A DNA stretch of 64,000 nt from Chlamydiota bacterium. Its GTDB lineage: Bacteria > Auribacterota > JACPWU01. Under the pieces are notes generated by a model. The model was given only the letters and a program-made list of their open reading frames with translations. It did no database searches and was not told the origin of the DNA. Below, piece after piece: positions 3,618 to 53,500 of the stretch; position 1 is the first letter of the stretch; each line of letters starts with the position of its first letter. The position numbers and the translations under genes are program-made. The stretch is taken from the NCBI GenBank assembly GCA_016178055.1, contig JACOUC010000036.1, forward strand, positions 9 to 64,008. The letters run 5' to 3'.

Positions 3618-3878
3618 TTACTCCAAGGGTGGAATACAACGAAGAGGGCTCCTTTTTCTTGCCCGATCCCAATCATCCACCAACTCACTCACATGAATTT
3701 TTCTCCACGCATTCACCAATCCCAAAGCCCGCTTGGACAAAGATCCTTTAATAATTTTCCCGCTTTCGATCTCAATCACAGCCTCCTCACCACCATACTT
3801 GGCATGAAAATGAGGCGGAGCATGATCATTCCAATAAATCGCAATGAGAATTCCAAAAAACCTACTGATGATTGGCAT
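3618..3878 (-). CDS. DUF4160-family protein
   Basis: MPIISRFFGILIAIYWNDHAPPHFHAKYG is the hallmark N-terminus of DUF4160. It is paired with DUF2442, as is usual for this two-gene module. Confidence 0.75.
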   Translation of the reverse strand: MPIISRFFGILIAIYWNDHAPPHFHAKYGGEEAVIEIESGKIIKGSLSKRALGLVNAWRKIHVSELVDDWDRARKRSPLRCIPPLE

Positions 3879-19887: not shown

Positions 19888-20069
19888 GACAACCCCTCTC
19901 GATCTTGAAAAAATCAATAATGACTGCAAGCTTACATAAGTAAAGACACTTTGGGGACTAGAAATGTAAAAATAAAAATTTAGAAATTTCCATCTCACAA
20001 TTGATAAAGGAAGGTTTCTTATAGAATAACCAGCTATTCCTTCAAGCCCTTACATAATGATTTCCTCTA

Positions 20070-24214: not shown

Positions 24215-24245
24215 ATTTCGAATCTCGGATTTCGAATTTCGAATT
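24215..24245. repeat. Left heptamer-repeat arm of the four-helix-bundle cassette
   Basis: ATTTCGA ATCTCGG ATTTCGA ATTTCGA ATT. Its reverse complement shares an 18-19 nt perfect core with 24617..24649. Confidence 0.8.
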
Positions 24246-24255
24246 GAAAAACAAA

Positions 24256-24618
24256 ATGAATTCTCAAGAGTTAAAAACGAGGACTAAACTGTTTGGACTT
24301 AAAATCATTCTTTTGGTTGAAAAATTGCCACGTTCAAAAACATTGGATATTATAAATCGTCAACTTCTACGCTCTGCAACATCCATCGGGGCAAATTATA
24401 GAGCTGCATGTCGTGCAAGATCCAAAGCGGATTTTGTGTCAAAAATTGGCATTGTCGAAGAAGAATCCGATGAATCAGTTTATTGGCTTGAATTGCTTAT
24501 AGAAACTAAGCTGGTTACTGATACCCAAATACATGTCTTGCTTAAAGAAGCAAACGAGTTAACAGCGATCTTTACCGCAACAGGAAGAACTACAAAAGAA
24601 AAACAGAAAAATGAATAA
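24256..24618 (+). CDS. Four-helix-bundle protein (23S rRNA intervening-sequence protein family)
   Basis: LPRSKTLDIINRQLLRSATSIGANYRAACRARSKADFVSKIGIVEEESDESVYWLELL fits the family pattern. ATG at 24256; the track start 24244 is a TTG inside the repeat arm. Confidence 0.8.
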   Translation: MNSQELKTRTKLFGLKIILLVEKLPRSKTLDIINRQLLRSATSIGANYRAACRARSKADFVSKIGIVEEESDESVYWLELLIETKLVTDTQIHVLLKEANELTAIFTATGRTTKEKQKNE

Positions 24619-26113: not shown

Positions 26114-26119
26114 CAAGAA

Positions 26120-26178
26120 GATCTATAAACGCGGATCTAACGCAGATCTATAAACGCAGATCAAATGCGGATCTATTT
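26120..26178. repeat. Left repeat arm of the GxxExxY cassette
   Basis: Tandem GATCTATAAACGCG / GATCTAACGCA / GATCTATAAACGCA / GATCAAATGCG units, complementary to the right-arm units GATCCGCGTTT. Confidence 0.75.
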
Positions 26179-26655
26179 ATGGCTATAGAAGAAAAATTGC
26201 TGTATCAGGAGATTACATATGAGATTAGAGGAGCGTGTTTCTGGATATGGAAGGAATTCGCAAGTGCATTCAAAGAATCTATCATTGATAAAGCCCTCAC
26301 GGAGGAACTCAAGAAAAGGGGACTTAAGGTTGATAACCAAAAACACATAGACATTTTCTACAACAAAAAGAAAGTAGGAACTTATATTCCTGATAAAGTT
26401 ATCAATGATTGTGTGCTCGTTGAACTCAAAAGAAAACCTTTTTTACTACGGCAAGATAAAGAACAATTGTGGCATTATTTAAAAGGATCCGAATACAAAT
26501 TGGGTTTGCTAATCAACTTTGGAGAAAACGAACTAGAGTTTGAACGCATCGCCTACGACACTAAAAGAAGATCAAAGAGAGATCAGCGCCAGATCCGCGT
26601 TGCAGATCCGCGTTTGATCCGCGTAGTAGATCCGCGTTTGATCCGCGAACAATGA
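26179..26655 (+). CDS. GxxExxY protein (PD-(D/E)XK-like family)
   Basis: MAIEEKLLYQEITYEIRGACF... and LGLLINFG are typical of the GxxExxY family. The C-terminal 25-30 aa (IRVADPRLIRVVDPRLIREQ) are read from the right repeat arm. The track start 26110 is a TTG. Confidence 0.75.
   Translation: MAIEEKLLYQEITYEIRGACFWIWKEFASAFKESIIDKALTEELKKRGLKVDNQKHIDIFYNKKKVGTYIPDKVINDCVLVELKRKPFLLRQDKEQLWHYLKGSEYKLGLLINFGENELEFERIAYDTKRRSKRDQRQIRVADPRLIRVVDPRLIREQ
26581..26650. repeat. Right repeat arm of the GxxExxY cassette
   Basis: Five units of (CA)GATCCGCGTTTG type. The arm ends at the ATGA stop/start overlap with pmbA. Confidence 0.75.
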
Positions 26656-33327: not shown

Positions 33328-34287
33328 ATGCCTCTCGAAAAAAAATTAGGTGCAGCAACGCGTGATGCTTATGGGAAAGCCCTCATAGAGCTTGGGAAGA
33401 AAAACCAAAACATTGTCGTCTTGGATGCGGATCTCTCCAAATCAACTAAAACCGAACTTTTTGGAAAAGAATTCCCGGATCGATTTATTAACTGCGGCAT
33501 CATTGAAGCAAACATGGTGGGTGTTGCATCGGGACTCGCCCTTTCAGGAAAAATTGTCTTTGTTTCAAGCTTTGCCTGCTTTGTCATCTGCAAATCCTAC
33601 GATCAACTGCGCATGTCTATCGCCAATCCCATGGCCAATGTCAAAATCGTCGCCTCTCATGGTGGAATCAGTGTCGGTGAGGACGGAGCCTCTCAACAGG
33701 CGATCGAAGACATTGCTCTTGCAGCTTCTCTTCCAGGATTCACCGTCATCCTCCCTTCGGATGAACATTGCACGCGAGAGCTCGTCATTCAAGCAGCCCA
33801 AACTCCTGGCCCCTTTTATATTCGCACCGGACGCCCGAAAGCCCCACTTGTTCACACTGAAAAAACGAAATTTAAAATTGGAAAAGGGGTCCTCCTCCGG
33901 GAAGGACAGGATGTCACACTCATTGCAAATGGCCTTCTTGTCTTTGAAGCCTTAATGGCTGCAGAAAAACTTCAAAATGAAGGAATGAGCGCTTCTGTCA
34001 TTGACATGCACACCATTAAGCCTCTGGATTTGGAGCTCTTAAAATCCGAGTGCAAAAAAACGGGAGCCATTGTAACCGCCGAAGAGCATCTTTTAATTGG
34101 AGGCTTAGGAAGTGCAGTAGCCCAAGCAACGGCTCAAATCCATCCTGTTCCCATCGAATATGTTGCCATCAACGACACCTACGCAGAATCTGGAAAAGGT
34201 GACGAGCTTCTTGTAAAATATGGCCTCACCTCCCGCCATATTGTCGAATCTGTCCGAAAAGTGTTTAAGAGAAAATCTCTACGCTAA
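33328..34287 (+). CDS. Transketolase, C-terminal (pyrimidine-binding) subunit
   Basis: FINCGIIEANMVGVASGLA, HGGISVGEDGASQQ and the C-terminal domain pattern. Confidence 0.9.
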   Translation: MPLEKKLGAATRDAYGKALIELGKKNQNIVVLDADLSKSTKTELFGKEFPDRFINCGIIEANMVGVASGLALSGKIVFVSSFACFVICKSYDQLRMSIANPMANVKIVASHGGISVGEDGASQQAIEDIALAASLPGFTVILPSDEHCTRELVIQAAQTPGPFYIRTGRPKAPLVHTEKTKFKIGKGVLLREGQDVTLIANGLLVFEALMAAEKLQNEGMSASVIDMHTIKPLDLELLKSECKKTGAIVTAEEHLLIGGLGSAVAQATAQIHPVPIEYVAINDTYAESGKGDELLVKYGLTSRHIVESVRKVFKRKSLR

Positions 34288-34502
34288 TTAATCTTTTTTT
34301 AAATCTTTTTACACAATAACACTAGAACCTTCGTAGGCAACCTTGATATGAAACTTACTCACCTTAGAAATCAAGCCACCAAAGCCATATCAAAATCTGG
34401 AAATAAAATAACGGCTGGATGAACCTTAAGGGCTTTTGCTAGAACCAAAGCCCTTTCTCTACCCATATAATGTGCATCTGTTTCCATGGCAAGAGAGAAC
34501 TA

Positions 34503-34679
34503 TCAAATGTTTTCTAAATGAGAACTGGGAAATTCTTGGAGATAAAGTTCCGTGGCTTCTTTTAAGTTCGAAATGGCCTCTTCCAATGCAGAACCTTGAC
34601 TGACAGTTCCAACCTCTGGACATTCCGCAACGTAAAGATGATCTTCTTTATGAATAACTGCGCAAAAGGACTGAAACAT
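34503..34679 (-). CDS. HicB-like (UPF0150) antitoxin-family protein, 58 aa
   Basis: My own translation, since the ORF is below the track cutoff: MFQSFCAVIHKEDHLYVAECPEVGTVSQGSALEEAISNLKEATELYLQEFPSSHLENI. AGGAG lies upstream. No hicA partner was seen. Confidence 0.65.
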   Translation of the reverse strand: MFQSFCAVIHKEDHLYVAECPEVGTVSQGSALEEAISNLKEATELYLQEFPSSHLENI

Positions 34680-34714
34680 TTTACTATAGCTCCTATATAT
34701 CTTTAATTTAAGTA

Positions 34715-34740
34715 TTGCGGAAATCTATTACGCTGCGGCG
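34715..34740. repeat. Duplicated copy of the ORF2 3' end and downstream sequence
   Basis: TTGCGGAAATCTATTACGCTGCGGCG compared with TGCGGGAATCTGTTACGCGGCGGCGG at 35551..35577. On the minus strand both read GCNGCNGCG-TAA-YAGATTYCCGCA. Confidence 0.7.
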
Positions 34741-34768
34741 TCAGAGAGTGTTAAGAGTTATAAGGTGA

Positions 34769-35215
34769 TTAAATAAACTTTTTTTTGAGTTTTTTTAAGA
34801 AATCTTCGATTTCACCCTGTTGCATTCTTTGATGATCAATCAAGGCACAATCAATGGCCTCAATTAAACTATTTTTTTCAGAGTAGTTTAGAACTAATTC
34901 ATGAACTACCTTGTCAAGCAGTGGAAGCTCTTCTCTTAAGACAGACCAAACAATATCGATATCAATCCCAAAATATTCATGCGTAATTTTATTTCTAAAG
35001 TCTACTATTGGGCGATATTGTTCATTCAAAATTTTATATCGAATCAAATTACCAATCGCTTCCCCTATCACTTGTAGTTCTCTCAAAACTGCATCGTATG
35101 ACCTAAAATCTCGCAAGAGCTCTTGCTTGGAGAAAAAACTGCGAACAAGGTGATTTACCTTATAAATAGCCACTAAAACATCAACAATATAATGTTCCAC
35201 ATCACGCTTAGGCAT
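34769..35215 (-). CDS. HepT/DUF86-family toxin (nucleotidyltransferase substrate-binding protein-like)
   Basis: The RNKITHEYFGIDIDIVW (RxxxHxY) motif. It overlaps the upstream MNT gene by 8 nt. Confidence 0.8.
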   Translation of the reverse strand: MPKRDVEHYIVDVLVAIYKVNHLVRSFFSKQELLRDFRSYDAVLRELQVIGEAIGNLIRYKILNEQYRPIVDFRNKITHEYFGIDIDIVWSVLREELPLLDKVVHELVLNYSEKNSLIEAIDCALIDHQRMQQGEIEDFLKKLKKKFI

Positions 35216-35498
35216 AAATCACATCTTTTTGAATACGACGGCGAATAAATTCTTTTAAGGAAGACTCAAGTCCAAGATCGACCTTTTTTTTGAAAGAAGA
35301 TTCAAGAAAATGGTTCAAATTAAAAAAACTCCTGAATTTATTTGGACTTACAATATCGACAAGAATATCAATATCACTCTCCTCACGAGCCTCATTTCGT
35401 GCGTAGCTCCCAAACAAACCGATGCTGACGACCCCAAAGTTTGTCTTAAGCTCTGCTTTATGTCTTTGAAGAAAATGGAGAATTTCGTCACGTGTCAT
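35208..35498 (-). CDS. MNT-type nucleotidyltransferase antitoxin
   Basis: The GLFGSYARNEAREESDIDILVD (GSxxRGx...DxD) motif. Confidence 0.85.
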   Translation of the reverse strand: MTRDEILHFLQRHKAELKTNFGVVSIGLFGSYARNEAREESDIDILVDIVSPNKFRSFFNLNHFLESSFKKKVDLGLESSLKEFIRRRIQKDVIYA

Positions 35499-35550
35499 AA
35501 ATATATTTATTTAAGTATAGCGTATTTTTAAAGTTGATGGTCACAAAAAA

Positions 35551-35577
35551 TGCGGGAATCTGTTACGCGGCGGCGGC
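35551..35577. repeat. Original copy of the repeat at the ORF2 stop codon
   Basis: See 34715..34740. The two copies bracket the MNT-HepT pair. Confidence 0.7.
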
Positions 35578-38500
35578 GGCGAGTTCTGAGATGGCTTTGA
35601 GGTTGTTGCGAGTGATTTCGTCAGAAAGGTTTTTGCGTTCGATATGAATAGTTTTATTTTCTCTAAATTGTTGTGCAAGATTCGGGTCAATTTTCCCAAT
35701 CATTTCTAACACCTCGGGACTGACAGAATCTACCTGAATATTGATTTCATCATTGCTTAAGAGAATGATGTTAAGATCTTTCGAAATCAAACCTTCATAG
35801 AGACTACGATGTTCCATATGAACGATAAATTGAAAGTCTTTTTTCTCCAGTGCTTCTAATCCATATCCAGGTTTGGCAAGTTCAGCCTTAATAAAGTTGA
35901 ACAGTGCCTCACCCGCTAGGTCCTTACTTTCAGGAGTAAGTAATAAGACACTTCTATTGTTTTCCTCTCCTGTTATGCTAAGCAAGCTGTCAAACTCTGG
36001 CCCCAATGCACTCTTTAAAGAATCCTTTTTAATCTGATCATGATTCATGAGCACAATTTTAAATCCCTTATTATTTTTCATCTTCTGAGCAGCTTCTTTC
36101 AAAATCTCAATATAAAAATCCGCCTCAGGTCGCTTGACTCCCTTTGCATCGACCAAATTAGCTAAATCAAAATCAACGACGCCTTTTCCTTTACCAAACG
36201 ACTCGCGGCTGTTCACAAAGAGATTTAAGAAAGCTTTTGTTGCAACACGAAGATGATTGGGTAGCACTCGTATGTTTTTCAGCTCCTCGTCCTTCCATCG
36301 ATCAATCTGTTCAGATTTGGTTTTTAAACTTAGCTTTTCAGCATCCGTCATTTCATATTGATCAATTTTGGATTTGAAAGTGCTCGAAGGCTCTAATCCA
36401 TTCAGCTCTTCTCCACTGGCAAGTTTCATCTCAAGCTGCAATCTCCAACCAGCCTCGGCTGCAACGCCCGAGCGATGGGCATTAAGGCTCGAGGCTCGAG
36501 GCTCGAGGCTCGAGGTAGAAGACTTTTTCAGGCCAAACTCCCTATCTTCATGATTAAAAATATCATCAACAACATCTTTAAAGTGAATCCGCCCATCAAA
36601 AAGGGTTACCGTCGCGGCTTCAATCAAATATTCAATGGGGATGACTGACCAGCGAACGCCATCCACATCTACCGTGACAGAAGAAGCAGTAGAGACGACT
36701 CCATCTGCATCCGTCGTTGTGAAATAATAGGGATGCCGCCCCCTATCTGGCGAGTCGTTGCGACTTGCAAAAATAATGTTGCGGTCTGTAAACCATTCTT
36801 TGATCTGAGCATCGGTCAACGCCATTCCCCTAACGCTTAAACTATTCTTTAAACGCTCCACATATCCATCAGGTCCCGATTGACGATGTTTAACCTGCTC
36901 ATAAATATCTTGGGCATTTTCTTCAGAAAAATGACCGGACCCAATGGTGCGGGAGGTGATAGAAGAGGGCATCGCTGGAGCTATCGCAAGTGGATCCATA
37001 AGGCTCTGAACCTGAACAGTCTTATCATCCGAACCCTTGCTTCGAATGTTTAAGTTTGGTTGGGTCCTGTCGTCTAAGATATCTATCCCTTCTGCCTGCT
37101 CAACCAGGACGCGTGGAACATCTCTCACAGGAACCCTTGAAATCACTCTTCCCATCTGCGAGTCACTGAGGGGATCAGAGATTCCATCCGTCATTTCAAG
37201 TAGCCAAGACCCTGATGGAACCTCTTCTGCTACAACGACTATTGGAAAATATAGATGATTGGCAATCAGGCTATTCACCACCCTGTTTCTTCTCTGCCAC
37301 AGTTGCTCAGGAGTATATCGATTGAAGTCACTTGGAATGAGATGTTCCCACTTCTCAAAATCACCCTCCTGCTCCACAGTAGAATAAAAGGGCTGCAAGG
37401 TCCATATCAAACGTATTTTTTTTGCCCTTCGGGCATCGTAAATAAGAAGTGACGAAGAGGTTGTCACTGGATAATTGTCTATCGTTAAAGGTAAAAGTTT
37501 TGTCTTAGGCCTTCGTAAATAGACCCGAGAATCGCCCGCATTAATGGTATAGACCATATAGGTTCCGTCTTTTTTTGGGATCACAAGAGACACGGCTGCT
37601 GTTGTCCCCATTCTATTGATCGGAAAAAGTTTTAAAAAAATATTCCAATCCTTTCCGTAGAAGAAAGATTCCAACTCATTAATCCGCGCCTCAGATCGAG
37701 ATACTGCATCAAAAGCCTCTAATATACCCCTTTGATTATCGCGAAAATGTTTCCTTAAAGATTCGACATCACCCTGGGTCGTTGACCCTCTCTTCATCTC
37801 CTCGACCCATTCGGGTGTAAAAATTGACGGCTCAGAAGAAAAGGATTTTCTCAAAACTCTTTTGATCTGATTGCGATCATGGGCGCTTAAGGGGATGCGC
37901 AACACACGAGAGATGATGTTATCTAAGTAGGACTCGATCATCGATTCCGGCACTTCTTCTAAGATCATATAAGGATTTGGAACTTGGCTCATCTTCTCTA
38001 TGACAGAGTGGGCCCTTTTAAAAGAGCGAGCAAGGATTGTATAAACCTGATCTTCATCCGAGGCCTCCTCTAATTCCTCGGAAAGGATAGAGGAAATCAC
38101 AATCTTGGCAAGGGTACTGGCGACCTGCCCTCCAGGACGACCTCCCACGCCATCCAAAACGCCCGATACCCTCCAGCCATTCCTTAAAACCATCGCAAAT
38201 CGATTGTCCTCATTTCGATCCGGATGCGCACTGGAAGCCTTTGTCAGATGTGAAAACACAGTGGCTTCAACCCTCCATCGGTCGACATCCTGTGCTAAAC
38301 TCTCAAGGGAAGCTTGATCATTATGAGAAATGTTTGGATCATTGCGGATTTCGAGAATCAATTTTTCAGAGGGCGCTAAACCTTGTAAATATTTCTGGTC
38401 GCTTCTCTTCCTAGCCAGCAAAAGATCATGATGGATGCGCTCACCCTTTGAGGCACGGTATTCAGCGGCGACACCCACACGATGGGCTTGTTGACGAAGG

Positions 38501-41500
38501 TCAATAGACAACTGGTCGATTCGACTGACTCCCACTTTCTTCATTAGCTCAAGCAATCTTTGATATTCACTTCCTTCATGGGTCACAATGCCACTCACCA
38601 CTCTATCAATGTCTGTATCAAGCTCGCCAGAGGGTTCAAGATAATCGACGGTGATGAGGGTGTAAAGCTGGTTATTCGCCACAAAACTGATGGATGGACT
38701 GCGGGCTCCGATGATATTGGTAAGATAGTGAGAATCTCTTTGACGATCACCTCCCGGCATTTCTCGTAAGTCGCTTAACCGAACATAAAGAACTTGCACG
38801 TTTTGGGCCAATGCCGTTTGATCTATCTCTTCGAGATCGAGGCCCCACTGGGCACACTGATCACGCGTGTTTGTTTGAGTCGTTTTAATTCGATTTACAA
38901 AATCCGTCACACTCAAACTCGTCACATCCGAAAGCTGAATATCCGGGTGATTTCCAACGACATGGGAGTTAAAGCTTCCAGAACCTCCTGAAGTTTCAGT
39001 GTCCCATCCTTCCATACCCATTAGACCCCACTCACCCTGTCCAGTAAAGCTCATATCTCCTCCTGCCGATAAGAAGCTGGCCATGCTGGATTCTTCCGCC
39101 TTCAGCTTTTCACCAAGGCTAATAATCTCGAGCAACTTTTCTCTCGCTTCCTCAAAATCCATTCTGTTTTTTGCTGGATTCAAAACTTTTTGAGTTTCTC
39201 CATCAACAACCACCGAGGAACGATTTGCCGCAAGCTCGTTATGTAATCCCTTCTTTACCCACTCGATCCACAATTTCCACATTTCTCCCTCTCCTCGACC
39301 CAGAGGCCTGTTATCTTCCAAAATATTCAGATTAGGCTGTGCAAACAATTTTCTTAAAAACACATTCACTGTTTTTCTAAATGCTGGATATTGTTGAACA
39401 AGTACTCTCAAACCTCCATGAACTCCTTTTAAAAATTGGTTTGCATTTATCCACGAAATTTCTTCTTCTTGAATATCTTGATCAGAAAAAGGATCTTTTC
39501 CATGACTCAAAACATGAAAAATCATAACAGCCATGCCATATAAATCAGAACGTCTTAAAGGATCTGGATCACTGACATCAACCGGTTCTAAATGTTGCTG
39601 AAACATCTGTGTTAATAACTTTTCCGGTGATAAATAAGAGGAACTGCCTGATACTTGTCCTCCATCTTTAGAAAGGTCATCTGTTTTAGACCTTGCAAGT
39701 CCAAAATCGATCAATTGGGTCTGAAGCGTTATCGGATCTACGATCACATTATCTTCTTTAACATCATGATGATTGACATCACCGTCTTGAACTCCTTGTA
39801 AGGAGTTCAGAAAATTCAGCGATACGCGAGCCAGTTTGATCATGTCGTCCACCGAAAAAGCCCCAGATGATGGAAAATCCTTCACCCAATCATCGAAGGT
39901 CACCCCTTCTACCCATTCCATCGCAATAAAAAAGGACTTTTTCTCTTTTTTCTCTACACCTGAAACGAAAGTTCCTTCTCCAAAATCATAAATTGCTGCA
40001 ACATCTTTACGATGAATTTTGGCTTGAAGTTCAGCCTCCCTCTTAAAGAAAGGTAATTTGTCTTGATCCAATGCCTCTTTAATCAGAACGCGTCTGCCAT
40101 TCTCATCCTCTGCAATCCAAATCCTTCCCATTCCGCCTTGGGCAAGGTAGCCAACAATGTCATAACGATTTTCGAGCCTTGACCCCATATAGGGATATTC
40201 TGATAATTGCTTGCCTTCTAATTTACGAATAGCATCTTGGGCTTCTCCAATCGATAAATCTATACTTGCAATTATATTCTTATGATCAGTGATACGACTT
40301 TTATAGATATTCTTATCTAATCCATTTAAGAAACTCTCAGAAAAAGAAGCAATTCGTTTTATATCTTTAGTAATCTCCCATTTTTCCAACCTTGTAAGCA
40401 TAGTATTCAAGGAGCCTGTGAATGCGGCAGTAAAGGCATCAAAATTTAAAATGACGGTTTTTGGAGAAGTTGTAAGTGTCTGTAAAATAAACTCACAAGA
40501 TTGCTCAAAGGAATCCAATGTTCTTGGAGTTTGAACACTGTTTAAGTTTTCAAGACCTGCAATTAGAGCAATATAGGCATTGGCTAAATGAAGCTGGCTT
40601 TCAAGAGAGGCACCTCCTCTTTGAAGGGATTCAAGATTATTTCTGACCTCTGGTAAAAGAGGAGAAACAAGAGGATTCGTCGAATGATAACTCAAAAGGG
40701 CTTCGATCTTCCACTCATCTACTTGATTGGCTAAGCCCTCAAGATCTTTTGCACCTGTTGGAAGCTTAAGTTGAGAAGCAGGTTTCAGAGATTGAAGATA
40801 TTGAATATTTCCTGTCTTGGCAGCAAGGAGGATGTCCCAATGAATTCTTTCGCCATGAGTCTGAGCAAATTCTGTTCTGACACCCGTCTGATGGGCTTCT
40901 CTTCTAAGCGATTCAGGAAGAGCAGCTATCGTGTCTACCTGAGCTTCACCCATCCTCTCTATCAGCTCTTGATATTCCGACCTCTCATGAACGACAATAC
41001 CTCGGGCAGTTTTTTGAACATCTAAGCTTTCATCAGGCTTATCTTTTAAATAATCCACACTGATCACCGTGTAAAGCTGACCATTCACCACAAAACTGAT
41101 GGAGGAGCTTCTGCTCTTACCCGTTGAATCCGTGAAATAATGAAGATCTTGAGAACTGATCCGGCCAGGAAGGCCATTTAGAGTTGTGAAGAGAATATGA
41201 TGGGTTGGGTCCCCTGCTGTGACTGTCTCTAAAGACTGAGCATCAAGACCAAACTTGCTACATGCTTTTCGCATCTCCTCTTGCATACCTTCTAGCTGCT
41301 CAACAAATTGAGTATCTGTAAGGGTAGTTAAATCAGAAAGTTGAATGTCCTTATTTTCTCCAATGGTGTGGGATTGGAAAATTGGAGTAACTCCAGAAGC
41401 AGAAACAAGTGCTTCCCAACGGTATTGGGTGGGGAATGTCTGCCCTATTTGAGTGATGATAAGGGTTTGTCCATCTTGGCTTAAATTTAAGGAAAACTGA

Positions 41501-44500
41501 GGTGTTGAAATCTTTCTAGCGTTAGTATCATCTGGCAAGAGAAGATCCGATTCAGCAGTTTTTTTAGCGCGGCTTCCAACTGTGACGACTTTACCTTGTT
41601 CTAAGATAAAGTTTTCAACACCCGGCTGCCGGCCAGGGGCAAAAATCTTATCCCCCTTTTTAGGAAGAGAAAGGACAAACTGTCCTGAACGGTAATCTAT
41701 ATGTAATATCTCTTTATCAAAGCTTTCGGGTGCGCCAAGTTTTTTAACTAACCCTTTCACTCCTAAAACTAAGGTTCGGTTTGAGAAGTTGCCGGGTCCT
41801 ACCGGAAGACTGTCTCCGCTTTTCAATTCATTTATCCATTTTTCTGCTTCTACTTTGACAGCAGATTCAACGAATGGCGTGGGTGGTTTTTCTTCACCCC
41901 TAAATGAGGTTCGAGAACCCAAATGTTCTACTTCCAAGTCATCTTCAACTCTTTGGATTCTGACATGTTTTTCTGAAAGAGCTTGAAACAGACGGAGTAA
42001 AGTCTTATCATCCCTTCCTAAAATTTGGCCAGCAGTAAGATGATCCTTATTCCATTTACAAAGACTCGTAGAAGAAATTCCTTTCCCTTCAAAAGACAAA
42101 GCAACCCCTCCATCCAGTTGGAGTGAAACTCTGACTTCAATCGACTCCTCACTGCGTGCTCCAGGCACTCTAAGAATCAAATCTTTCTTTTCCAAAACAC
42201 TCATCGGAAAACGCAATAAAGGCCCCGGTTGATCCTTTGCAGTCTTTACTTCACCTAAGGGGGTATTTTCTAGAGGCAAATCTTTCAGTTCTAAAACTTT
42301 TCTTTGAGCTGAAGGCTGGACTGCAAGAGGAGCAAATTTTGAAGGCTGAATCACCTCTTCATAACCGGTCATGTCATCATCTTTTGCACGACCTCGTAAA
42401 GGATGTGTAGAACCTTTATTGGCAGATGTATCTCTAACTTCACGACTCTTTTGAATCAGAAGAAGAGGGGCCTCTCCAGGGGCTGTTTCATCCATGATTT
42501 TATCAATTGAATCGTGGATCGAACCGCCTGGAGTCTCGTCGGGTAAATTATCTCTCAGTCCATCGCACACCCCTATTAAGCGAGTGCCAGCCTTCACTCC
42601 CTCAGCTTTTACGATAACAGGAATACATTTCATACCCGGTGTTAGAGAAGTTCCGAGGGCGTTCCTGTTTTCAAAAACTTCTTTAGGGTTTCCTTGAAGA
42701 TTGCTAGGAAGCAAGTTCTCACAACGATCACAATCACGAAGACTTAGAACGGAGGCCAAGAAAAGTTGAGGGGTGTTTTTTCTAGCCTTATCAGCCTCAT
42801 CCAAAGAGATAGACCTGTTTCTTTGTTCTTCTGAAGGAATATAATTATCAATGGTCATCACACGTAATTTTTTACCGGGTTCCTTCAAATAAAAACCGGT
42901 ATCCCCTACATTAATCACGTAAATATTGGAAGTCCCATCAGATTGGGGAACAATGATCGAAGTTCCTCCCGCTGTTCCCATATTTGAAAGGGGGAAAAAC
43001 GCCTTCCAAAATGCTTCTATAGATTGATTCTCATTGATTGCCCGATCCATTTTCCTATTCATTTCCTTTACAAAATTTCCTATCAATTTTTTAGCATCAT
43101 CTTGTTTCAAATTAAGAAAAGTATTTGAAAACTGTTTTCCTACCTCTATAGTAAAGAATCTCTTCCAATCATTTAAAACAGAATCTTTTAAAGTAAGAAA
43201 ATTATATTGTTTATCTACATCCTGACCATATACAGATTTCAGATAACCCAGAACGGCGTTAGATAAAAGATTTTCAATTGAATAAGCAGCAAAATGACTC
43301 TTCATCACCCCACGAATTTCCGAGACATCAAATGAAAACTTCAAACGCCCCGGAAGCAAATTCAAAACTTTTTCTAAAAATGAATCCAAAAACTCATCCT
43401 CAAAAAGAGGACGGGGAAGACTTGCAACTAATTCAATCGCAAGTTGAGCTTTTTGATAAGCCTCACCCAAAATCGAAGGGATTTGCTCTTCTGAAGCATT
43501 TGAAATTTTTTGTTTAAGATATTCGCTCACGACAACTCTGGCAATGGTGCTGGCCACTTCTCCTCCTGCCGCCCCTCCCATTCCATCAAAGACGCCTCCT
43601 ACAATCATCTCATCCTTCAAAACAATTCTAAAATAACTGTCTTCATTTCGCCCCATGTGTGCATTTGCAGCGAGAGTCGCCATGCTATAGACTCCAGGTT
43701 CTCTCTTGACTTCAATCCCTATCTCCTCCTCTTCAAGTGAAAGTTGGCCCGGCTTATCCTCATAAGAAATCGTTAGACCTTCTCTATAGCCAATGAAAAG
43801 CTTCCCATCGCTAACACGAAGCGAAACACGACCGATCGGTGTGCCTCCGTTAACCGAAGGAAGGCGAATATTTCTAGTATTGGTATGAGGTCCTAAACTG
43901 CCCAAAAGAATTTTTTCTTCTAAAATATCAGTGGCTCTTGATCCCAAACTTACTTCCTCATCATTAGATCCGATCCGAGAAAAATTAAAATTCCCATCTT
44001 CGAGACTAACTTTCACAACAACCGAATTTCCTAAATCTGGCGAAGAACCCGTCCATGTCAGAAGAATATCCTGAGACTCTAGATCTGTCAGATTGATCTC
44101 TTCAAGTCCGGTAGAAGCTATAACATCAAAGTCATCAATGGCTTGATCTATGGTTTGAGTTCGTTGCTGTGGGTCTTTCTCAAGAAGTTTTCTCAACCAA
44201 TCGACCCATGGAGAAGGTAAATTCAGCAAGCGGGGATGATGAGGATTTTTCTCGAAAAAATCTACCGCAACAGTATTCGTTAAAACTTGCCGTTTTTGAC
44301 CTTCGTCAAGAAATGCCTCTGCCCCAAAAGGATTTTTGCCAGTCAAGGCCTCTAAAAAAAGAGTTCCCAGTGAAAATAAATCTGAAGAGAATCGAACGCG
44401 ATAGCCAGGGGCACTTTCAGAAATTTGATCTATATCTACAATCTCAGGGGCCATATAACCAAGCGTTCCAACTATGCGATGAATCTCTTCATTGACCGAA

Positions 44501-47500
44501 ACTGAGATTCCAAAATCTAAAAGGGTTATCCTTCCCGTCTCCTCATCATAAATGATATTTTCCGGCTTAAGATCAAGATGAACAATATTTGCCTGATGCA
44601 CCTTTTGAACAGCCAAGAGAATCCTCCTAAAACATAGCAGCATTCTCTGAATATCGGCCTCTTCCAGAGTCTCCTTAGCCCTAAACCTCTGAATGAAATC
44701 TTTCAGTTGTTTTCCAGATCCATACTCCATCGCAAAATAGTGACGTGTCCCCCCTGTCGTCGGATCTCGATAGGAACTCTTTTCTAACACCCTTGGGACA
44801 ATATTTTCACCTTCCGAAATTTTAACTACAGCCTCTTGCATCTCCATTTCACGATTTCTTGCCTGACCCTGACTCATAGCGGGTTCTTGATCTAATGGGA
44901 CTTTGACAACACACCGTGTTCCTGCGGAATAAGAGCCTTTTGGTTCATCTGATTCAAGAGGTTTAACTAATTCAACCTCGAAGACCTTGGCGATACTTGA
45001 ACTCACCAATAATCCAAGAATTTTGTACTTTTCTCCAAGCGGTGGCAAATTTTGTTCAGGAAAAGAAGCCATCCAATTTTCCGGGGCTGAATCTTTTAAA
45101 AATGGGAATAATTTTTGTTTCATCTGACGAGTTCGTTCAGGCCCCACAATAGAAACAACTCGATCGTAATCAAAATGATTTCTTCGCTCATAGGCTCTTT
45201 GAGCAACATTCTCAAAACCCTTCATGATATCGTTAAATGTCTTTTCGAAAATAGGTCTTAATGTTGAATCTAATGTGGCATTAGGACTTAACCGTCCTTG
45301 GGTTATATTAAATGCCCGTTGAAATTTAGCAATGGCAAAACCCGTTTGATTAAGCTCAAATTCCCTTAACCCTTCAAGAAAACTAACACTCGCTCGGGTA
45401 TAATCAAGCATGCACTCGTGTAATAAATCTAAGCTTTTATCTCGATCAGAGGATTTCTGTTTAATCGTAATCCCTGGAGTTTTTTCCCAAAATTTCTTTA
45501 GGCTTTCCGATAACTGCATCGCACTAGATTTATCACCCCTTTCAAGAGCTTCGCGAACGACCTGATCGTGCCTCTGAACAAGCCCTATCAATCGCGTGTA
45601 TGTACTCTGAAATTGAGTCGGATCTTTAAGAAGGTTATTCCACAAAAGTTCACAGGCTTTCGCATCATCTTGCGTTTGAAGAGCGGCTTCAACCGAATCT
45701 TGTCCCCTTGCTGAGGGGGAATTACGCGGCGGCGCAAGGGCCGCCATCGAAGCCAGAGGAAGGATCTTAAGAAAATCACTGACCCCTCGTGGCACCCATG
45801 AAGGGAGTCTTCCCTCTCGAGCCCGTAAAATAAGACGGTTATATATCGAGTGAATCAACGCAAGACCGATAGAAGCACTGACTAAAGGTGCCACAGGTGC
45901 ACTAAAAATAAATATAGCTACATCATAAATTCCAAGATAAAAAATGGAAAAGTAGACATAGACGACAAAATAGTTTAAAAATTCTCTTTTAAACGCATCC
46001 CCAAAATTTCGATAGCGCTGATCGCTGGGCAAGCGATAGCGATCGATCATCCACAGCACAATCACATGTCCAGCCGAAAAAAGAAACCCGCTCACGAAAA
46101 ATGCAGTCAAAGCCAAAGGCGCCTGCAAAGAGAAATAATCCACACTTCCATGCACTAAAGACCAAAAGAGACCCGTTTCAAGAATGGGTGCTACCCACGT
46201 GATCAGGATCCTTCCCCAGAAGGTCTTTGATGGCTTGATCAGAAATCGCTCACGAAGACTAAGAGCTGCCTCGCTCACTTCTTGACCGTTACGAATATAA
46301 GTTCTGCCAGACTCATGCGCGGACATCCAGGCTGTATCTTCAATAAAAACTGGAATCTCTTTAAACTCCCTTTTATAGAACTCTTTCAATAGTTCTAGAG
46401 CAATCTCACGAATTTTTTTAGAATCACGGCCTGCTGCCTCCCAAATTTGACCTGAAACTGCAAGTAGTTTTTCCTTTTGTTTCTCTCTATCCAGGTTTCT
46501 CATTGCTTCAGGCTCTGGTATGATGATCTGTGTTCCTGTCGGCGAAGAAAGTTTTTTTGCAAACTCCTTGAACAAGTGATGAATGGCCTGGGCATGTCCC
46601 TTTTCAATTTGGGGTATGGCCATAGTACCAGTGTCTAAACCGCCTTGCTGACGAACTTGCTCTTTTACCTCTTCAACCTTTTTCCAATATTCAAAAAGCT
46701 CTGTTTCAAAAAATCTCATAACGTTGATTTCATCCGGGATGGCCGCTAAAGAACCCAGGTAAGCCGTGTATTCATCGTTAGGGCGTGAAAGCCCCTTGTT
46801 CAACAAGTCTGCCAACTCATTCAATTTATGAATCGCTTCATGATAAACGGTGGATAATGTCAAGCGCTCGTCTCTCCCCTCTTTAAGAAGAACATAAACC
46901 TCATCCTGCTTGCTCGGAGCAAAACATCTGTAATTATCCTTATTCGTATAATCTGGTCTGACAAAGGCAACCCGAAATTCTGAATAGGGCTCAAGATGAA
47001 TCGGGATATAAGAGTCTAGGCGGCCCAAAAGAACGATGTCGGACGGGTGGGCATAAAAGACAAGATGATAGGGCTTGAAGAATTGTCTTAAGAATTCAGC
47101 GGCTTGTGTATAATTCCAGCTCTTTTGAAGAACGGCTCCCACAGATTCCACAAGTTTGGGATTTTTCCTTTTCATGTCACTGATCCAGGTCTGATATTCA
47201 CCACCATCCGCCTGAAGCTTGCCTTGAAAGAATTTCAATAACATTGAATAAATCCCTTCTGCTTGAGGCTGGGTATAGGTTGGTCTGAAAGATTCACCCT
47301 TTAGAAGAACCTCCCCATAAACCTTCAGGCTTGTCTCAAACCAATCAAATACAAATATTTCACCATCCTTTCCGTCAAAGAACAATTTCCTCAACTGGCT
47401 GTGAGCACTTCGATCTTGGCTAAAAAAAGCGCTTTTATCTTGAGAAGAAACCTCAACATTCGAAACGTACTCATTCACCTGACGTGTGAGAAAGGTTGAA

Positions 47501-50500
47501 TTGTCAACGATGCTCCAACTATTTTCTTTAATCAAAGAGCCCCAGGCCAGCACATGAGCCATTCGAATAATATTGGGGCGGCCTTTCTCCATAAAGGATG
47601 GAGGAATTTTTGCTTGTAACTCCAAATCTTGCGGCAATGTCCAACGCAGCTTGTGATACCAAGCGGCTTTCAGCTTTTCAAACTGAAGCGCCTCGGCACG
47701 TTCGGACTCATTAAGACTCTGATCCATAAAGATGTAATAAACAGGATTTTGTCCATCACTACTTTCAACAGGCAAGAGATAGGCCCCTGTAAAAGATTTT
47801 AGATGCTGGCCGATGACATCACTTTCATTCTGACTGTCATAATTAAAAATACGACAAGTGATGGCTTCATTATTAATGGTTTCCGTTGTCACCTCTCCCT
47901 GTGTGGAAATAGGCAATTCAACTGTTTTCTCTAGGTTAATGGTTTTCCCAAGACGGAGCGCTACCCTTTGCCCCTGAATCTGTTGCGCTTTGATTAGAAT
48001 CACTCCATCACCCTCTTTCCCCAAACTATCTCCCTCGCTCCAAATATTCTTACGAGCGCCGCCACCGGTGATATTGGGCGGATTAATCGAGGGAACTCGC
48101 AGAAGAGCGGGGGCTAAACTTCCACTGCTTAAGAGGCTTAGGCTCAAAATGACACCGCTCATTCTTCGGGCAAGAATTCCATGCTGCCTCAACCAATTCC
48201 AAACGGGATAGAGCCAATTCATCCTTCCTTTAAGTTCTCTTCTCGCCTCATCTCTAAACCTTTCTTCATAGGTATGAATAGAATCTATCGAAAGAATCGG
48301 ATAGCGATATTTTTGCAAAAGAGGATTGATGAGCCCAGACAATTGATTTTGATAATTAATTCTTGCTTGAATATTTTCGGCCTTAAATGCACTTTCAACA
48401 AATCCTGCCAATTCAGTCCCATTCATCTCTAATATTTTCAAACGGCTTAATTGAGTCAATCCTTCAGGTGTTTGACCCGCTTCAAGGTAGGATTGAACTT
48501 GATGGGCAATGATTGTGGCTAGAATAAGAGCTTTATCAGTATTGGGATGATCCCGCTCATCAGCATCAAAACGCTCCTCTACACCCGGAAGAGCAAGTAG
48601 CTGTGTTTTTAATTGAGAGTCCCTTTCACCCAAAGCAGCTAAAATAATCTGAATGATTTGCCATTCTCCACTTTCATGTCTCAAAACTTCGTCAAATGCT
48701 TGACTTGGCTTCCCCTGACTGCAAAGATCTTGCCTTACCTGAATAGCAAGGGCTGTAGCAGTGCCCTCATGCCCTCCATGATGGCCTCTTGGAAAATTTT
48801 TCAGAGAAAGAGAAGGTTCTACTGCTTGATCCGTTACAGGATTTAAAATGGGCTGACCTGACCATACAAGAGAAGGCGAAACTTTATCAGTCACAGATCC
48901 AGATGCAGCCAAGGAAAGTGGAAGAGCTGAGTCATCACCCGGATAGCCCACAAATGGTTCCCGTCTCATAGATCCGACTAGAGGTATTTCACCTAAAGAT
49001 GGAGCAACAACCGCAGGCACACTCGCAAGTCTAGGCAAGAGCCCAAGCCGAGATTGAGTCGGAGGTTGAAGCTCACGCATGGCCGTGGGTAAAAGGCCTT
49101 GATAAATATTTAGAATGATTTCTCTAGAAAGATCTACCATTGCTTGAGCAATTTGTTCAGCTGAAATTTGTTGTTCTCGTCCTGGAGGGCCACGAACACC
49201 TGCAAGTTTATTTAACAAAACAGGAGGAGCTCTTCCCGAAGAGGGTTCTACCCATTTTTGAAGTTCTAGAGCAACAGCCTCACGTGATTTAAGAATACCC
49301 TTTACATATAACGCCTTCTTTGCGAGTGCATGAAGTGTTTCCATTCCTGGGCCTGAGAGACCTGCCTTCAATCCTGCATCACGAATTCGAGCCATATATT
49401 TGGCAGTCTTCATTAAAGTTTGGATCGGATCCCCCTGATACGACTCTCTCTGGTGCTCAAATTTACCTAAGAGCTCAGTCATGGAATGAAGGTAACGCAA
49501 GGGCGTCATATCGATGAATTCAATTCTCTCACCCTCTTTCTGCATTTGATTGACCACATGGAAAATAGCCCCTGTAGAATAGTGAGGATCTTTCTCGAAA
49601 AGACGGACTTCCATGGAGAGGCTTAACAACTGAACTCTCTGGGACATACTCAGCGGTATAATATTTTCTTGAGTGACGACATTATTTTCTTCCTTGAAAC
49701 GAGCTAATCTCTCAAGCTTCCTTCGTAAAATTCGACGTCTGGCTTCTTCTTCCCGCAATCCCTCTGGAATTGTTGGATCCAAATTTGAGATTTCAGCGGC
49801 AAGCTGCCCTTGTACTTTTCCATAGTAGGCCTCGGCTTGTGCCAAAAAATCTTGCAAGGAAGGAATTTCCTTTAAAGACTTCCACATTTCATGGGAAGGA
49901 CCCCCCCCATCGATCAAAAAAGCAGTATAGGCGACCTGAGTCTCCAATAGCAATGCCTGTTGACGACGAAGAGAATCTTCTTGGCGAGAGATATCGATGA
50001 TCAAGGGGTCTCCATAAGAATTTGCATCGAAAACCTGATAAGAAGAATCTTGAAAGCCCGCCTCTTTCCAAACATCATCAAAGGCCATCAAAATCCGCTC
50101 GGACCCTTCATTGAGAATGCTGAGGTCATAATCACTCCCCATTCCAACTGAACCTGTAGAGTTTAAACGGACTTCTCGGAAATTTTTGATTTTTGAATGA
50201 ACTTTAATCCAAGAATAATTCTGATGAGCCCTTTCTTCCGCCTTCATTAAAAGGGTATCCACAACCGCCTTTCTCTGTCGTTCAAAAGCCTTTTGAAGTT
50301 CTTCAGAAAGATTAAATTCTTTCACCCATGCACGAATCTGATCCCAATCTTGCACCTCTTTAAAAAAGGCAAGAAAACGCTCATCCACCCCCTCATCGGT
50401 GACTTGGGAAAGTCCATTTCCAACAGAAGATAAAAGCTTTTGAAGAGGAAGAGGAAGCGGCTGATGAATCCTCTGGATAATATTTCCTTTATAAAAATCA

Positions 50501-53500
50501 AAGTCATAGGTCAAAAGATTTCCCTTTCGATCGGTAGAAGTAAAAAAAGTTTCTTTCAAAACGCCCAGGGCATCGCGAAAATAAGTTTCTGCCTCTACTC
50601 CAAACTTCTGAAGTAATTCTGAGCTCCGCGAAAGATTTTTTAAGAGATATTCCAACTCCTTTGAATTCATCATGTACCATGAACCCGCAATGGCGACCAC
50701 CTCATGGGGATTTTGTTTCCAATGAGACCGGTCTCCCTCTTTATCTTCTCTAAGTTGGCTGAAAGAAATACCTGCCTGACGAAGTTGAATCGCTCGAGCC
50801 TCAAGAAAACCAAATAGATCATCCCCTTTTGTCTCTTTAAATTGAGCGATTTCCTCATCTATTTGGAAAACATCGCCTGTTAGCTGGATCATATCTTTTT
50901 TGTTCAACAAATTCATATATTCATAAAGATCCGAACTCACATAAACCACCTCTTCTCCTCGTTCCTGACGAACCCAACCGTCTGGTTGCAATGATCTAAA
51001 GCCCTCAATACTGAGGGAAGCAAGCTGATCCATTGTAAACCTGCTCCCTGCATCATCAATATAAGCGGTAAACCCCGAAGCCTTACTCATACGAATCCAA
51101 CGATCAACAGAGAAGAGAGGCGTTTTTTCACGATTTGAGCCCGTCGAGAGTTTGTGACACAGCTCATGAAAAAATGTGACCGCCATCGGCTCACTTGTTC
51201 TTTGTTGCTCTAACAGTTGAAAATTAAGTGAAAGGGAAAGAACCGTTTGAGCAAGCCGAGCTACCCCCAGTGAAGACATTCCTCTTTCCGCACCTGAAAA
51301 AGCAATAAAGGTACGATAGGCATCCGTCATGGGGCGGGGAAGAAAACTGACGGCCTCTTCCATTTCTTTTATGAAAGACTCTGGAATGGGTGCCTCAATC
51401 GCAATGTTACGTGCTCGAGCCTCAAGGTGGAGCAAAACTAGATGATATAAAATAGATGATTTCCACTCTGCTTCTCTTCCCAGGACAAAATTTCTTTGGA
51501 GATATGAAAGCAAATTTTGTCCTTCCCGATCTATGCCTCTTTCCTCTTTTTTATATTTTTGAAAGAGAAAATCATTAAAAAGATGGCTAACCATATGATT
51601 GAGAATTGCATCCCCAACATCCGGAATGTAGGATAGTGCGATCATCAAAGCCCCTATCTCATCTTGGGTCAGCTCAAGTCCGCCAAGAGGATTTTGGAAA
51701 GTGCGGTCAAACACGGAAAGATGAACCGTCCTGGTTTCAAGACAATTTGATACAAATAGGACCAGTTGATCCTTAAGCTCAGGTCGTATAGGTAAAGGCC
51801 TCAGCTTTTGTTTGAAGCTCTCTAATTCAGGCCTTTCTACAACCGTTTGTCCCCCCAAAACTTCCAGTTTCACCGTTTCAGCTATATCAAGTCTGCGAGG
51901 CTCAACCGAAGGAACCAATATCGCTGAATCCCCTTCCACAGAACGGGCCGGCATAGATGTAAAAATACCGCTGGGTTTAAAAGCAATGGAAACTGGAACA
52001 ACCTCGCGTACAGTAGAATCATGTTTTCCATTAATACCCTCAACAATTGTGGCTGTACTCGTAAGAGCTTGCTTCAAAGCACTTATTTTATCCTTTATGT
52101 TTAAATATGAACCATTTAAAAAATTAATCACTTCCTTCAAAGCAGGGGTCACCACAGCAACATTTGCTTGGTAAAAACGAAGAGCGGCCTCTAAATCAGA
52201 ATAGCTATAATGTACCGCCAAATAAGCAGCAACTTTCTTTACAGAATCAAGGTCCCCTTCTTCGAGAAGAGGAAGCTGTTTATTTAACCCAACTTCTTTG
52301 CCGTCTCTAACATAGACACGAGACAATTCATGAGCCCTCATCCAGCTTGTATCCTCTACAAAATCTGGGACATACCCAAGTCCTTTTTCATCCCTGTAAA
52401 ACTCTTTCATGAGTTCCAAAGCAATATCATGAATCTTGTTGGAATCCTGGCCTAAATCTAGCCAAATTTTTTGCGAGATAGCCTTTAATTTTTCCTTTTG
52501 TTCACTCCTAGACAACCCCTGCAAATCAATAAACTTAGGAATAACAATTGGAATTGCGGTCCTTGCAGAAACTTTTTTGGCAAATTCTTTGAATAAATGA
52601 TGAATGGCCTTGGAATGCCCCCCTTTATCGTCGCTTTCAACAGCCAAAGTGTTTGAAGTTGATTCACCTCGTCCACGCGCTTGGGCTTTAGCTAATTCGG
52701 CCTCTTCCCAATAGCCAAAAAGCTCTGTCTCAAAAAAACGCTTCACATTGACTTCATCAGGAATGGCAATCAAGGAGGCAACGTAAGCCGTATATTCATC
52801 ATCAGCAAAACTCAATTTAAAATGTGGATTTATCTTTTTTAATAAAGCATTAAAATTATGCAAAGCTTCATGATAACCTGTGGAAAGTCTTAAGCGCTCA
52901 AGTTCTTCACTAGAAAGTTCCCGCCGACTCTCGCTATCCTGCAATAGAACATAAACTTCATCATTTATTCCCGGAATTTTAAAACCTCGGGCATTTCCTC
53001 GATTATCGTAATCTGGATGAACAAAAAGGATACGAAATGGGGGATGAAGACCTAAACTGATCGGAATGTATGAATCTAGGCGACCGAGCAAGATCGAACC
53101 ATAAGCTCTTCTACTCTGGAAAACAAAATGGTAGGGTTTAAAAAATTCCCTTAAAAATTCTGCGGCGGCAGCATAGCCCTGTCCTTTTTTGAGGATAATT
53201 TCAATATTTTTAAAAAGCTCTGTATCTCTATTTTTGGGGGAAAAGCTTACTTCTATTGAAGGATTTCCACTTTGAAGAGATACTCGAAAGCGGTTGTAAA
53301 TTTCTTCAACCTCTGCCTGTGTGTAGGACAACGGTTTTTCTACAGAGGATAGTGAATAAGGGCTCTTATTCTTTCCAAGATGCCTTACAATCAAATGACC
53401 CTGACTATCCTTCTTTAATGAAAGATGAAAACGAGATATCAGACTTTCAGAATCCTTAATAACTAAATTGAGACTCTTCGGAGAGCTTCCAGCAAATGGC

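Follow-up and report, generated by a model that had tools for sequence, protein, structure and literature searches.

Type VII toxin-antitoxin modules of the MntA/HepT kind are exemplified by SO_3165/SO_3166 of Shewanella oneidensis, and in the systems that have been studied MntA AMPylates the tyrosine of the Rx4HxY motif. The cassettes of chromosomal superintegrons are promoter-less small units, often toxin-antitoxin pairs, arranged head to tail. Elements related to ICESt1 integrate in the 3' end of fda. Accretion at the 3' end of a protein gene has been described for integrative elements and for cis-mobilizable elements (CIMEs), an example being the ICESt1-related elements of Streptococcus thermophilus (PMC5704250). 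In a class of insertions described for restriction-modification genes, a complete addiction module lies within a duplication of more than 30 bp, the repeat is unique in the genome, and no mobility gene is present (Furuta et al., 2010, PMC2853133; Mruk & Kobayashi, 2013, PMC3874152). The criteria of Furuta et al. specify an insert of less than 20 kb and a module made up of the R plus M genes (PMC2853133). Kobayashi's group explicitly separates this class from site-specific recombination (PMC2853133; PMC3874152), and the mechanism is unexplained even for restriction-modification insertions. In the literature that we searched, the pattern was linked only to restriction-modification genes and not to toxin-antitoxin pairs. 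Here we analysed a stretch of 64,000 nt (called the window throughout) from a Chlamydiota bacterium (GenBank assembly GCA_016178055.1, contig JACOUC010000036.1, positions 9 to 64,008), in which a gene pair predicted to encode a minimal nucleotidyltransferase (MNT) and a HepT toxin lies between two copies of the 3' end of a giant open reading frame (ORF), ORF2. We consider it somewhat better than an even chance that this arrangement records one old MntA/HepT insertion behind ORF2 with a long, variable target duplication, and not the use of a fixed attachment site.

On the minus strand, the genes follow one another in the order 2,350-codon ORF, 7,012-codon ORF2, MNT, HepT, HicB-like ORF and 38-codon ORF. 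Two units of toxin-antitoxin type, MNT-HepT and the HicB-like ORF, are thus adjacent behind the giant gene, as had been pointed out in an earlier reading of the sequence (the original prediction). The features of the locus, including the two repeats R1 and R2, are as follows.

63754-56702, minus strand: 2,350-codon ORF, a paralogue of ORF2 (from the ORF list)
35563..56601, minus strand: giant ORF2, 7,012 codons, with kinase and PP2C domains (Pfam Pkinase 3e-49, PP2C_2)
35551..35603, minus strand: proximal copy (B) of R1, comprising the last ~38 nt of ORF2, its stop TAA (35563-35565) and the next 12 nt
35519..35550, minus strand: 32-nt segment TTTTTTGTGACCATCAACTTTAAAAATACGCT, present in the proximal unit only, an indel between R1 and R2 (from the alignments)
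35501..35518, minus strand: proximal copy of R2, ATACTTAAATAAATATAT, ending 2 nt before the MNT ATG
35208..35498, minus strand: MntA-like minimal nucleotidyltransferase (predicted antitoxin), 96 aa (PF01909 1.1e-14)
34769..35215, minus strand: HepT (HEPN) RNase (predicted toxin), 148 aa (PF01934 1.2e-17)
34716..34766, minus strand: distal copy (A) of R1, a frame-broken remnant of the ORF2 3' end with stop and 12 nt
34695..34715, minus strand: distal copy of R2, ATACTTAAATTAAAGATATAT, followed by 15 nt with AGGAG and then the HicB-like ATG
34503..34679, minus strand: orphan HicB-like (UPF0150-type) ORF, 58 aa (PHROG 497 'HicB-like' 4e-7)
34371..34487, minus strand: 38-aa ORF in the frame of the HicB-like ORF (from the ORF list)
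33328..34287, plus strand: transketolase C-terminal subunit, convergent with the cassette stack (PF02779, PF02780)

The original prediction had noted that about 26 nt around the ORF2 stop recur beyond HepT, that the second copy is only a remnant, that the MNT-HepT pair lies exactly between the copies, and that a second, AT-rich segment is shared. All four observations were borne out, and the duplicate proved longer than noted (53 nt rather than 26). The core that had been recognized (34716-34741 versus 35551-35576, plus strand) is identical at 22 of 26 positions, and both copies fit the minus-strand pattern GCNGCNGCG TAA YAGATTYCCGCA. The ungapped alignment of R1 covers 41 nt with 78% identity (32/41), and allowing a single 2-nt indel lengthens it to 53 nt (34716-34766 versus 35551-35603). 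R1 aligned beyond all controls, since its local-alignment score of 23.5 was reached in 0/5000 dinucleotide shuffles (mean 8.7, maximum 19) and by 0/1028 real segments of the window (maximum 16). Outside the alanine run, an 18-nt core is identical at 16/18 positions between the copies, and at three or fewer mismatches it has two sites in all in the window, against an expectation of 0.08. The distal copy reads LLTLSDAAA between two stops, the first of them a TAA that precedes the shared stop by 9 codons; farther upstream the frame is lost at the 2-nt indel. Being out of frame and interrupted by a stop, it is therefore a remnant.

R2 is a real repeat, though weaker than R1. Positions 34697-34715 and 35501-35518 are identical at 17/19 positions with a 1-nt indel (score 13); 0.6% of mononucleotide shuffles scored as high, and 0/602 AT-rich real segments did. 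R1 and R2 are colinear in both units. The gap between repeat and cassette is 2 nt at each side, with the proximal unit ending ahead of the MNT ATG and the distal copy beginning behind the HepT stop. The 89-nt spacer that precedes the HicB-like gene consists of these 2 nt, R1, R2 and 15 nt with AGGAG.

Comparison with the paralogue of ORF2 indicated which copy is native. The C-terminal ~220 aa of ORF2 align with those of the 2,350-aa ORF, flush at both stops (26% identity, E 3e-17), the proteins ending in ISELAAAAA and MYDLAAVKA, respectively; kinase domains are shared as well. ORF2 was therefore neither truncated nor extended by the insertion, and the proximal R1 is the functional end of the gene. 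The 3' flank of the other paralogue bears no resemblance to R1, indicating that the distal copy duplicates ORF2's own end, including the non-coding 12 nt. A Logan contig from an independent assembly (3,325 nt, run SRR12113417) was identical to the window along its full length, and the arrangement is therefore not an artefact of one assembler.

The module between the repeats is predicted to be an intact type VII MntA/HepT-type pair. The antitoxin gene comes first and overlaps the toxin gene by 8 nt, a layout repeated in the homologous loci examined. In the translation of MNT the motif GSX10DXD is intact (G30-S31-X10-D42-I-D44), and its PF01909 score exceeds the gathering score; matches were also obtained to NCBIfam NF047752 MntA (2.3e-11, 43.5 bits) and to PDB 1WOT (1e-6). 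HepT has an intact Rx4HxY motif (R74-NKIT-H79-E-Y81), of which R74, H79 and Y81 are invariant across 20 homologues (alignment A3). It matches NCBIfam NF047751 (2.7e-10, 40.2 bits); 79 homologues were found, and no PDB relative was detectable by sequence. The pair thus shares with described type VII systems the order of genes, their overlap, the GSX10DXD nucleotidyltransferase and the HEPN toxin with Rx4HxY including the tyrosine. Unlike those systems, both window proteins fall under the NCBIfam equivalog cut-offs (60 in each case).

The closest relative of the module, and the only close one, carries HepT P0002 (68% aa identity) at locus L020 in another metagenome-assembled genome of the Chlamydiae. 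The two modules share 70% nt identity, and the similarity spans exactly the MNT ATG to the HepT stop (35498-34769, corresponding to L020 469-1198), with unrelated flanks. Homology is confined to the ORFs, indicating that the shared unit is the bare ORF pair and that R2 is not a cassette-borne promoter. Downstream at L020 lies a 4,541-aa giant gene, the N-terminus of which is 41% identical to ORF2. Directly upstream of the L020 pair, near the contig start, are ~11 copies of ACGTCCCCTAAA at an irregular spacing of 16-19 nt (L020 192-385), an array that may be iteron- or operator-like.

Further loci of the HepT subfamily (39-45% identity) were compared for bracketing by repeats. L040 and L041 are two independent metagenome assemblies of one arrangement (L040 2527-3580), in which a module with its own promoter (TTGATT...TATAAT) sits between a response-regulator gene and relB-pemK and is flanked by a direct repeat of 113 nt (86% identity, E 2e-34). 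The response-regulator gene, which is divergent, is intact and has its first 51 nt (17 codons) in the proximal copy; of its 5' end the distal copy keeps a truncated remnant, followed by the relB-pemK promoter. L040 is a clean toxin-antitoxin insertion in which a long piece of the target was duplicated. At L045 (563-3457), a neuB gene flanks the module on each side; the two share 82% identity over 1,012 nt (85.5% aa), and the second copy begins 4 nt before the annotated end of HepT. L043 and L045 share 80% nt identity in the ORF pair only (1721-2445), and their contexts differ. In Nitrosophilus kaiyonis (L042 1686-2426), the pair lies between rho and a glutamate-racemase-family gene, and HepT overlaps the downstream gene by 4 nt; at L043 (1711-2448) it lies between UDP-glucose dehydrogenase and glycosyltransferase genes with spacers of 9 nt and 6 nt. 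In both cases the pair sits tightly within a housekeeping operon, the upstream spacer measuring 9-34 nt and next to no space remaining downstream, and neither pair has a promoter that could be seen. No flanking repeat was found at L020, L042 or L043. Simple duplication of adjacent unique sequence was present at 3/7 independent subfamily loci, and in a control with a 740-nt gap placed at random in ~516 kb of sequence, 8/1,178 placements reached the same score, 5 of these 8 being unrelated to MNT-HepT loci.

Homologues on plasmids were distant (about 30-35% identity). Among six sampled, the flanks of five contained either no significant direct repeat or a weak and distant 23-nt match. The sixth, L050, has a perfect 25-nt flanking repeat, which was rejected as a target duplication because it is a palindrome beside parAB, probably the partition site. 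L038 was likewise rejected, its flanking repeats being multi-copy hairpin elements in swapped order. No further MNT-HepT loci were found in viral contigs. On the contig of P0012 (JGI sample 3300072015), MNT-HepT lies directly upstream of Lcl_C-domain, bAvd and reverse-transcriptase genes, which together look like a diversity-generating retroelement, and a second MNT-like gene is present ~2.7 kb upstream.

We next compared the locus with the restriction-modification insertions. The insert of ~742 nt contains MNT and HepT only, without a mobility gene, and lies well within the 20-kb limit. The direct duplication is longer than 30 bp (41 nt ungapped, 53 nt gapped, with a further colinear 19 nt). 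Beyond its two copies, R1 was not encountered in the 64-kb window, the fetched loci or the collections (genome, metagenome and viral), with 0 matches for the 24-nt repeat pattern in the genome and metagenome collections and 0 matches for the 18-nt core in viral contigs; a look for the repeat at other cassette sites had been proposed with the original prediction. Over the three cases, the target was a gene 3' end, a gene 5' end and most of a gene, and the repeats measured 53-75, 113 and 1,012 nt. Such variation in both length and target is the opposite of a fixed attachment (att) site. The likeness to the restriction-modification class covers a small addiction module, direct repeats of more than 30 bp of a target that is unique in the sequences searched, the lack of a transposase or integrase, repeat length and target that vary from case to case, and a duplication that may include part of a neighbouring gene. 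The cargo is different, being a type VII toxin-antitoxin pair, and since HepT is an RNase, models that attribute the DNA breaks to a nuclease of the module itself are inapplicable. A further difference is that the published cases were proven by empty sites and have repeats of 94-100% identity, whereas here the copies are ~78% identical and we infer the insertion.

Insertion with target duplication is the most economical history of the locus, and to this extent the original prediction of insertion at the end of the giant gene holds, without its serial and site-specific parts; as a whole, that interpretation is partly supported. Insertion as opposed to duplication followed by deletion, its direction and its molecular mechanism are what we infer from the arrangement. 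A module of ~742 nt, essentially two ORFs, would have been inserted once, immediately behind the ORF2 stop and ahead of the resident HicB-like gene. In the process ~75-105 nt of the target would have been duplicated, namely the last ~38 nt of ORF2, the stop, 12 nt and the AT-rich segment. The proximal copy would then have been kept by selection on ORF2, the ORF remaining intact to its native C-terminus, and the distal copy, free of constraint, would have acquired an indel of 2 nt, an early stop codon and ~22% substitutions as it decayed; it now makes up nearly the whole spacer between HepT and the HicB-like gene. As to mechanism, it is plausible that the two ends of the incoming fragment were joined to replicated or nicked DNA of the target at points staggered relative to each other. 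Expression could, as a conjecture, occur by read-through from ORF2 or from the duplicated AT-rich segment.

Several results weigh against this history. The copies are ~78% identical and differ by the 32-nt indel, which makes the history an old one that may be more complicated. In a BLAST comparison of 1,500-nt flanks the repeat stayed short of E<0.01, so that R1 owes its significance to the position of its copies, 2-65 nt away from the ends of the cassette. Besides being short and AT-rich, R2 is open to an alternative register, in which GCTATACTTAAAT pairs with GCTATAGTAAAAT beside the HicB-like ATG. No simple flanking duplication was seen in 4/7 subfamily loci or in the six distant plasmid loci, and the enrichment estimate draws on very few loci, the window being the ascertaining case. 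For L045, a tandem duplication of neuB that was already there could be the explanation. Neither an empty site nor any relative with conserved synteny was found; when transketolase was used as a synteny anchor, the best match (75% aa, L002) had another neighbourhood and matches in metagenomes reached at most 66%, and exact-protein look-ups with HepT, transketolase and the HicB-like ORF returned the same three contigs, all with one arrangement, and the 2,350-aa ORF had no record.

The repeats may instead reflect site-specific integration, with R1 an att site over the ORF2 stop, a tyrosine or serine recombinase encoded elsewhere, and circular cassettes that regenerate the 3' end and accrete in the manner of CIMEs. 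The geometry fits attL and attR, in that the direct repeats carry the target 3' end, the gene is intact by virtue of the proximal copy and the distal copy is a remnant. Tandem accretion of decayed elements without an integrase at a gene end is documented (PMC5704250), and two addiction-type units do stand side by side here. However, no integrase or transposase domain was present in any Pfam-scanned ORF of the 64-kb window (precomputed families were used for the 5,355-aa ORF), and the window contains no tRNA or tmRNA. Accretion would leave a third att copy beyond the HicB-like unit, but there is a single repeat pair, the copies of which differ at 9/41 positions and the core of which is unmatched elsewhere in the window, the fetched loci and the collections. 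The homologous L020 module lacks such a site, the parallel cases have different targets with repeats of 113 and 1,012 nt, unlike integrative elements and CIMEs, and a two-ORF insert leaves no room for arm-type sites. Recombination at a specific site thus appears quite unlikely. The locus is like an array of integron cassettes in having stacked, promoter-less small units, often toxin-antitoxin pairs; it differs in that no attC-like imperfect palindrome and no IntI domain were found in the window scans, and in that the repeats copy the end of the neighbouring gene and not cassette-borne sites. A history without insertion, in which a tandem duplication of the ORF2 end was mostly deleted, or a giant paralogue behind HepT was lost save for its last ~50 nt, is unlikely. 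The three giant ORFs of the window are paralogous and two are in tandem, the order of cassette and then giant gene exists at L020, where MNT-HepT is directly upstream of one, and L045 involves duplication of a whole gene. Against this, the similarity of the distal copy takes in R2 and the 12 non-coding nt that belong to ORF2 itself, which the 3' flank of the other paralogue does not share, so that a very recent ORF2 duplicate is needed as the donor. At least two events would be required, with breakpoints that by chance came to lie at a distance of 2 nt each from the stop of HepT and the start of MNT, and there is no other trace of a deleted giant gene.

R1 and R2 could also have a function, as a promoter, operator or RNA signal required by both small operons and kept or copied for the sake of regulation, and not be a by-product of insertion. 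Each unit is directly upstream of a start codon, and the non-coding part is at least as conserved as the formerly coding part (13/15 for the stop and 12 nt and 17/19 for R2, versus about 29/40), a difference that rests on too few positions. The shared AT-rich segment had originally been taken for a common promoter. A consensus scan of 34200-35800 detected neither a sigma-70-like promoter nor a terminator, however, and neither unit folds more stably than shuffles (z 0.26 and 0.07). In addition, R1 includes ~38 nt of ORF2 coding sequence with no apparent regulatory role, and the region upstream of the L020 module is unrelated, which makes the shared AT-rich segment a local duplication and not a cassette-borne one. 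We therefore hold a common regulatory element to be very improbable. Chance similarity arising from the GCN (alanine) run and AT-rich low complexity is hardly credible. The BLAST result with long flanks and the proportion of shuffles that reach R2 alone speak for it, as does our own estimate that a 21/24 match somewhere in 64 kb is not rare. The R1 score was, however, reached by no shuffle and no real segment, the 18-nt core lies outside the alanine run and is unique in the window, and the two repeats are colinear, each within 2 nt of a cassette end.

Other sequence features near the junctions were considered as well. No inverted repeat was detected at the junctions, and a dif/Xer-like or attC-like site at R1/R2 was rejected, as no dyad symmetry was apparent by eye and no inverted repeat was found. 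A T-rich match of 26 nt (34285-34310 versus 34770-34795) was rejected as a bracket of the HicB-like unit because its second copy is native HepT C-terminal coding sequence, conserved in L020.

The HicB-like ORF matched PF15919 (4.6e-4), PF21748 and PF24113 at ~5e-4 to 1e-3, all under the Pfam gathering scores, and gave four weak PDB matches, all to HicB/TTHA1756 (E 0.1-0.7). A single-sequence AlphaFold model was of low confidence (pLDDT 68), and a Foldseek search was uninformative. A HicA partner is absent, the upstream spacer being wholly R1 and R2 and the downstream side holding solely the 38-aa ORF, which had no family match. The HicB-like ORF ends in TGA TAG and the 38-aa ORF resumes in the same frame 4 codons on (window 34487-34505); it may represent the end of a longer gene that has decayed, or the shared frame may be coincidental. 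G+C content is 33-35% in the cassette region versus 38-52% in neighbouring genes, which is consistent with foreign or accessory DNA, and the transketolase gene marks the far boundary of the accessory region. The consequence for this genome is modest, in that the region from ORF2 to transketolase is a small accessory patch with one intact toxin-antitoxin pair and decayed remnants, and not a recombination platform.

Pairs of addiction type were also found behind the third giant ORF. These features are as follows.

3931-19998: third giant ORF, 5,355 aa (precomputed families listed)
3618-3878, minus strand: DUF4160, directly behind the free 3' end of the 5,355-aa giant ORF
3365-3613, minus strand: DUF2442, paired with DUF4160
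3080-3343, on the strand of the MazE/AbrB-type antitoxin: RelE/ParE-like toxin
2820-3083, on the strand opposite to DUF4160/DUF2442: MazE/AbrB-type antitoxin, paired with the RelE/ParE-like toxin

No flanking duplication was found around the DUF4160/DUF2442 or the MazE/RelE-like pair, and there is no second duplication at the HicB-like gene. MNT-HepT is thus the sole bracketed unit, and the notion of serial insertion is not supported. Addiction-type pairs were seen in the window solely behind giant genes, at both of their free 3' ends.

The three giant ORFs have a common N-terminal domain of ~520 aa. The protein database contained none of the giant proteins, and the C-terminal 500 aa of ORF2 had no match among 5.8 billion proteins. 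A profile of the N-terminal domain matched proteins of ~475-1,100 aa (most ~500 aa), none of them giant, and the domain also exists in metagenomes as stand-alone proteins, mostly of ~500 aa (P0080-P0095; E down to 2e-82; one with PF23202). Heptamers (GCTCGAG/G) form blocks of 3-4 tandem units in either orientation, many of them paired as inverted copies at a distance of 30-40 nt, with the in-frame reading LEARGSKLE or SSLEPRASS; GCTCGAGG (21 times) and CCTCGAGC (17 times) occur exclusively within the three giant ORFs. The blocks look like the in-frame palindromic repeat elements known from Rickettsia, and are located as follows.

8847-8925, 17947-18050, 18560-18577, 18806-18910, 19456-19560: heptamer blocks
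36487-36515, 54886-55000, 55621-55642, 63040-63068, 63371-63400: heptamer blocks

Elsewhere in the window, a four-helix gene of the 23S-rRNA-intervening-sequence type and a PDDEXK_3 (PD-(D/E)XK) gene lie around and between two PmbA/TldD-family peptidase genes (24244-24618 and 26110-26655), and the PDDEXK_3 gene is flanked by mutually inverted tandem repeats of the GATCCGCG type (26119-26168 and 26580-26651).

The event that we favour for the MNT-HepT pair would be of a known type and differ in what was inserted, namely a type VII toxin-antitoxin pair, here in an environmental chlamydia, and there is a modest hint that it is general for the subfamily. It is conceivable, though we would not expect it, that the MntA/HepT subfamily is a minimal mobile unit, the bare ORF pair spreading independently of any enzyme and without site specificity and leaving long, variable duplications. 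If so, it would have spread within and between genomes, in Chlamydiae as well as in the unrelated bacteria of L040 and L045, landing in gene ends, gene starts and whole genes, and insertion with long target duplication would not be confined to restriction-modification modules but would include toxin-antitoxin modules that target RNA. As a weaker corollary, addiction modules may land, or be retained, preferentially at giant-gene ends in these environmental chlamydiae: in the window both free 3' ends of such genes are followed by pairs, and at L020, too, the homologous module adjoins a giant gene. The mobility of chromosomal toxin-antitoxin systems is poorly understood, and the usual assumption is that they hitch-hike on plasmids, phages, transposons and integrons. 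The present locus would mean that a two-gene type VII module enters the chromosome alone and leaves a long duplicate of its target, so that the neighbouring gene stays intact and the module gains a copy of the local upstream sequence. As HepT is an RNase, this behaviour would be independent of a DNA-cutting cargo, and the three examples provide a concrete signature for a genome-wide survey.

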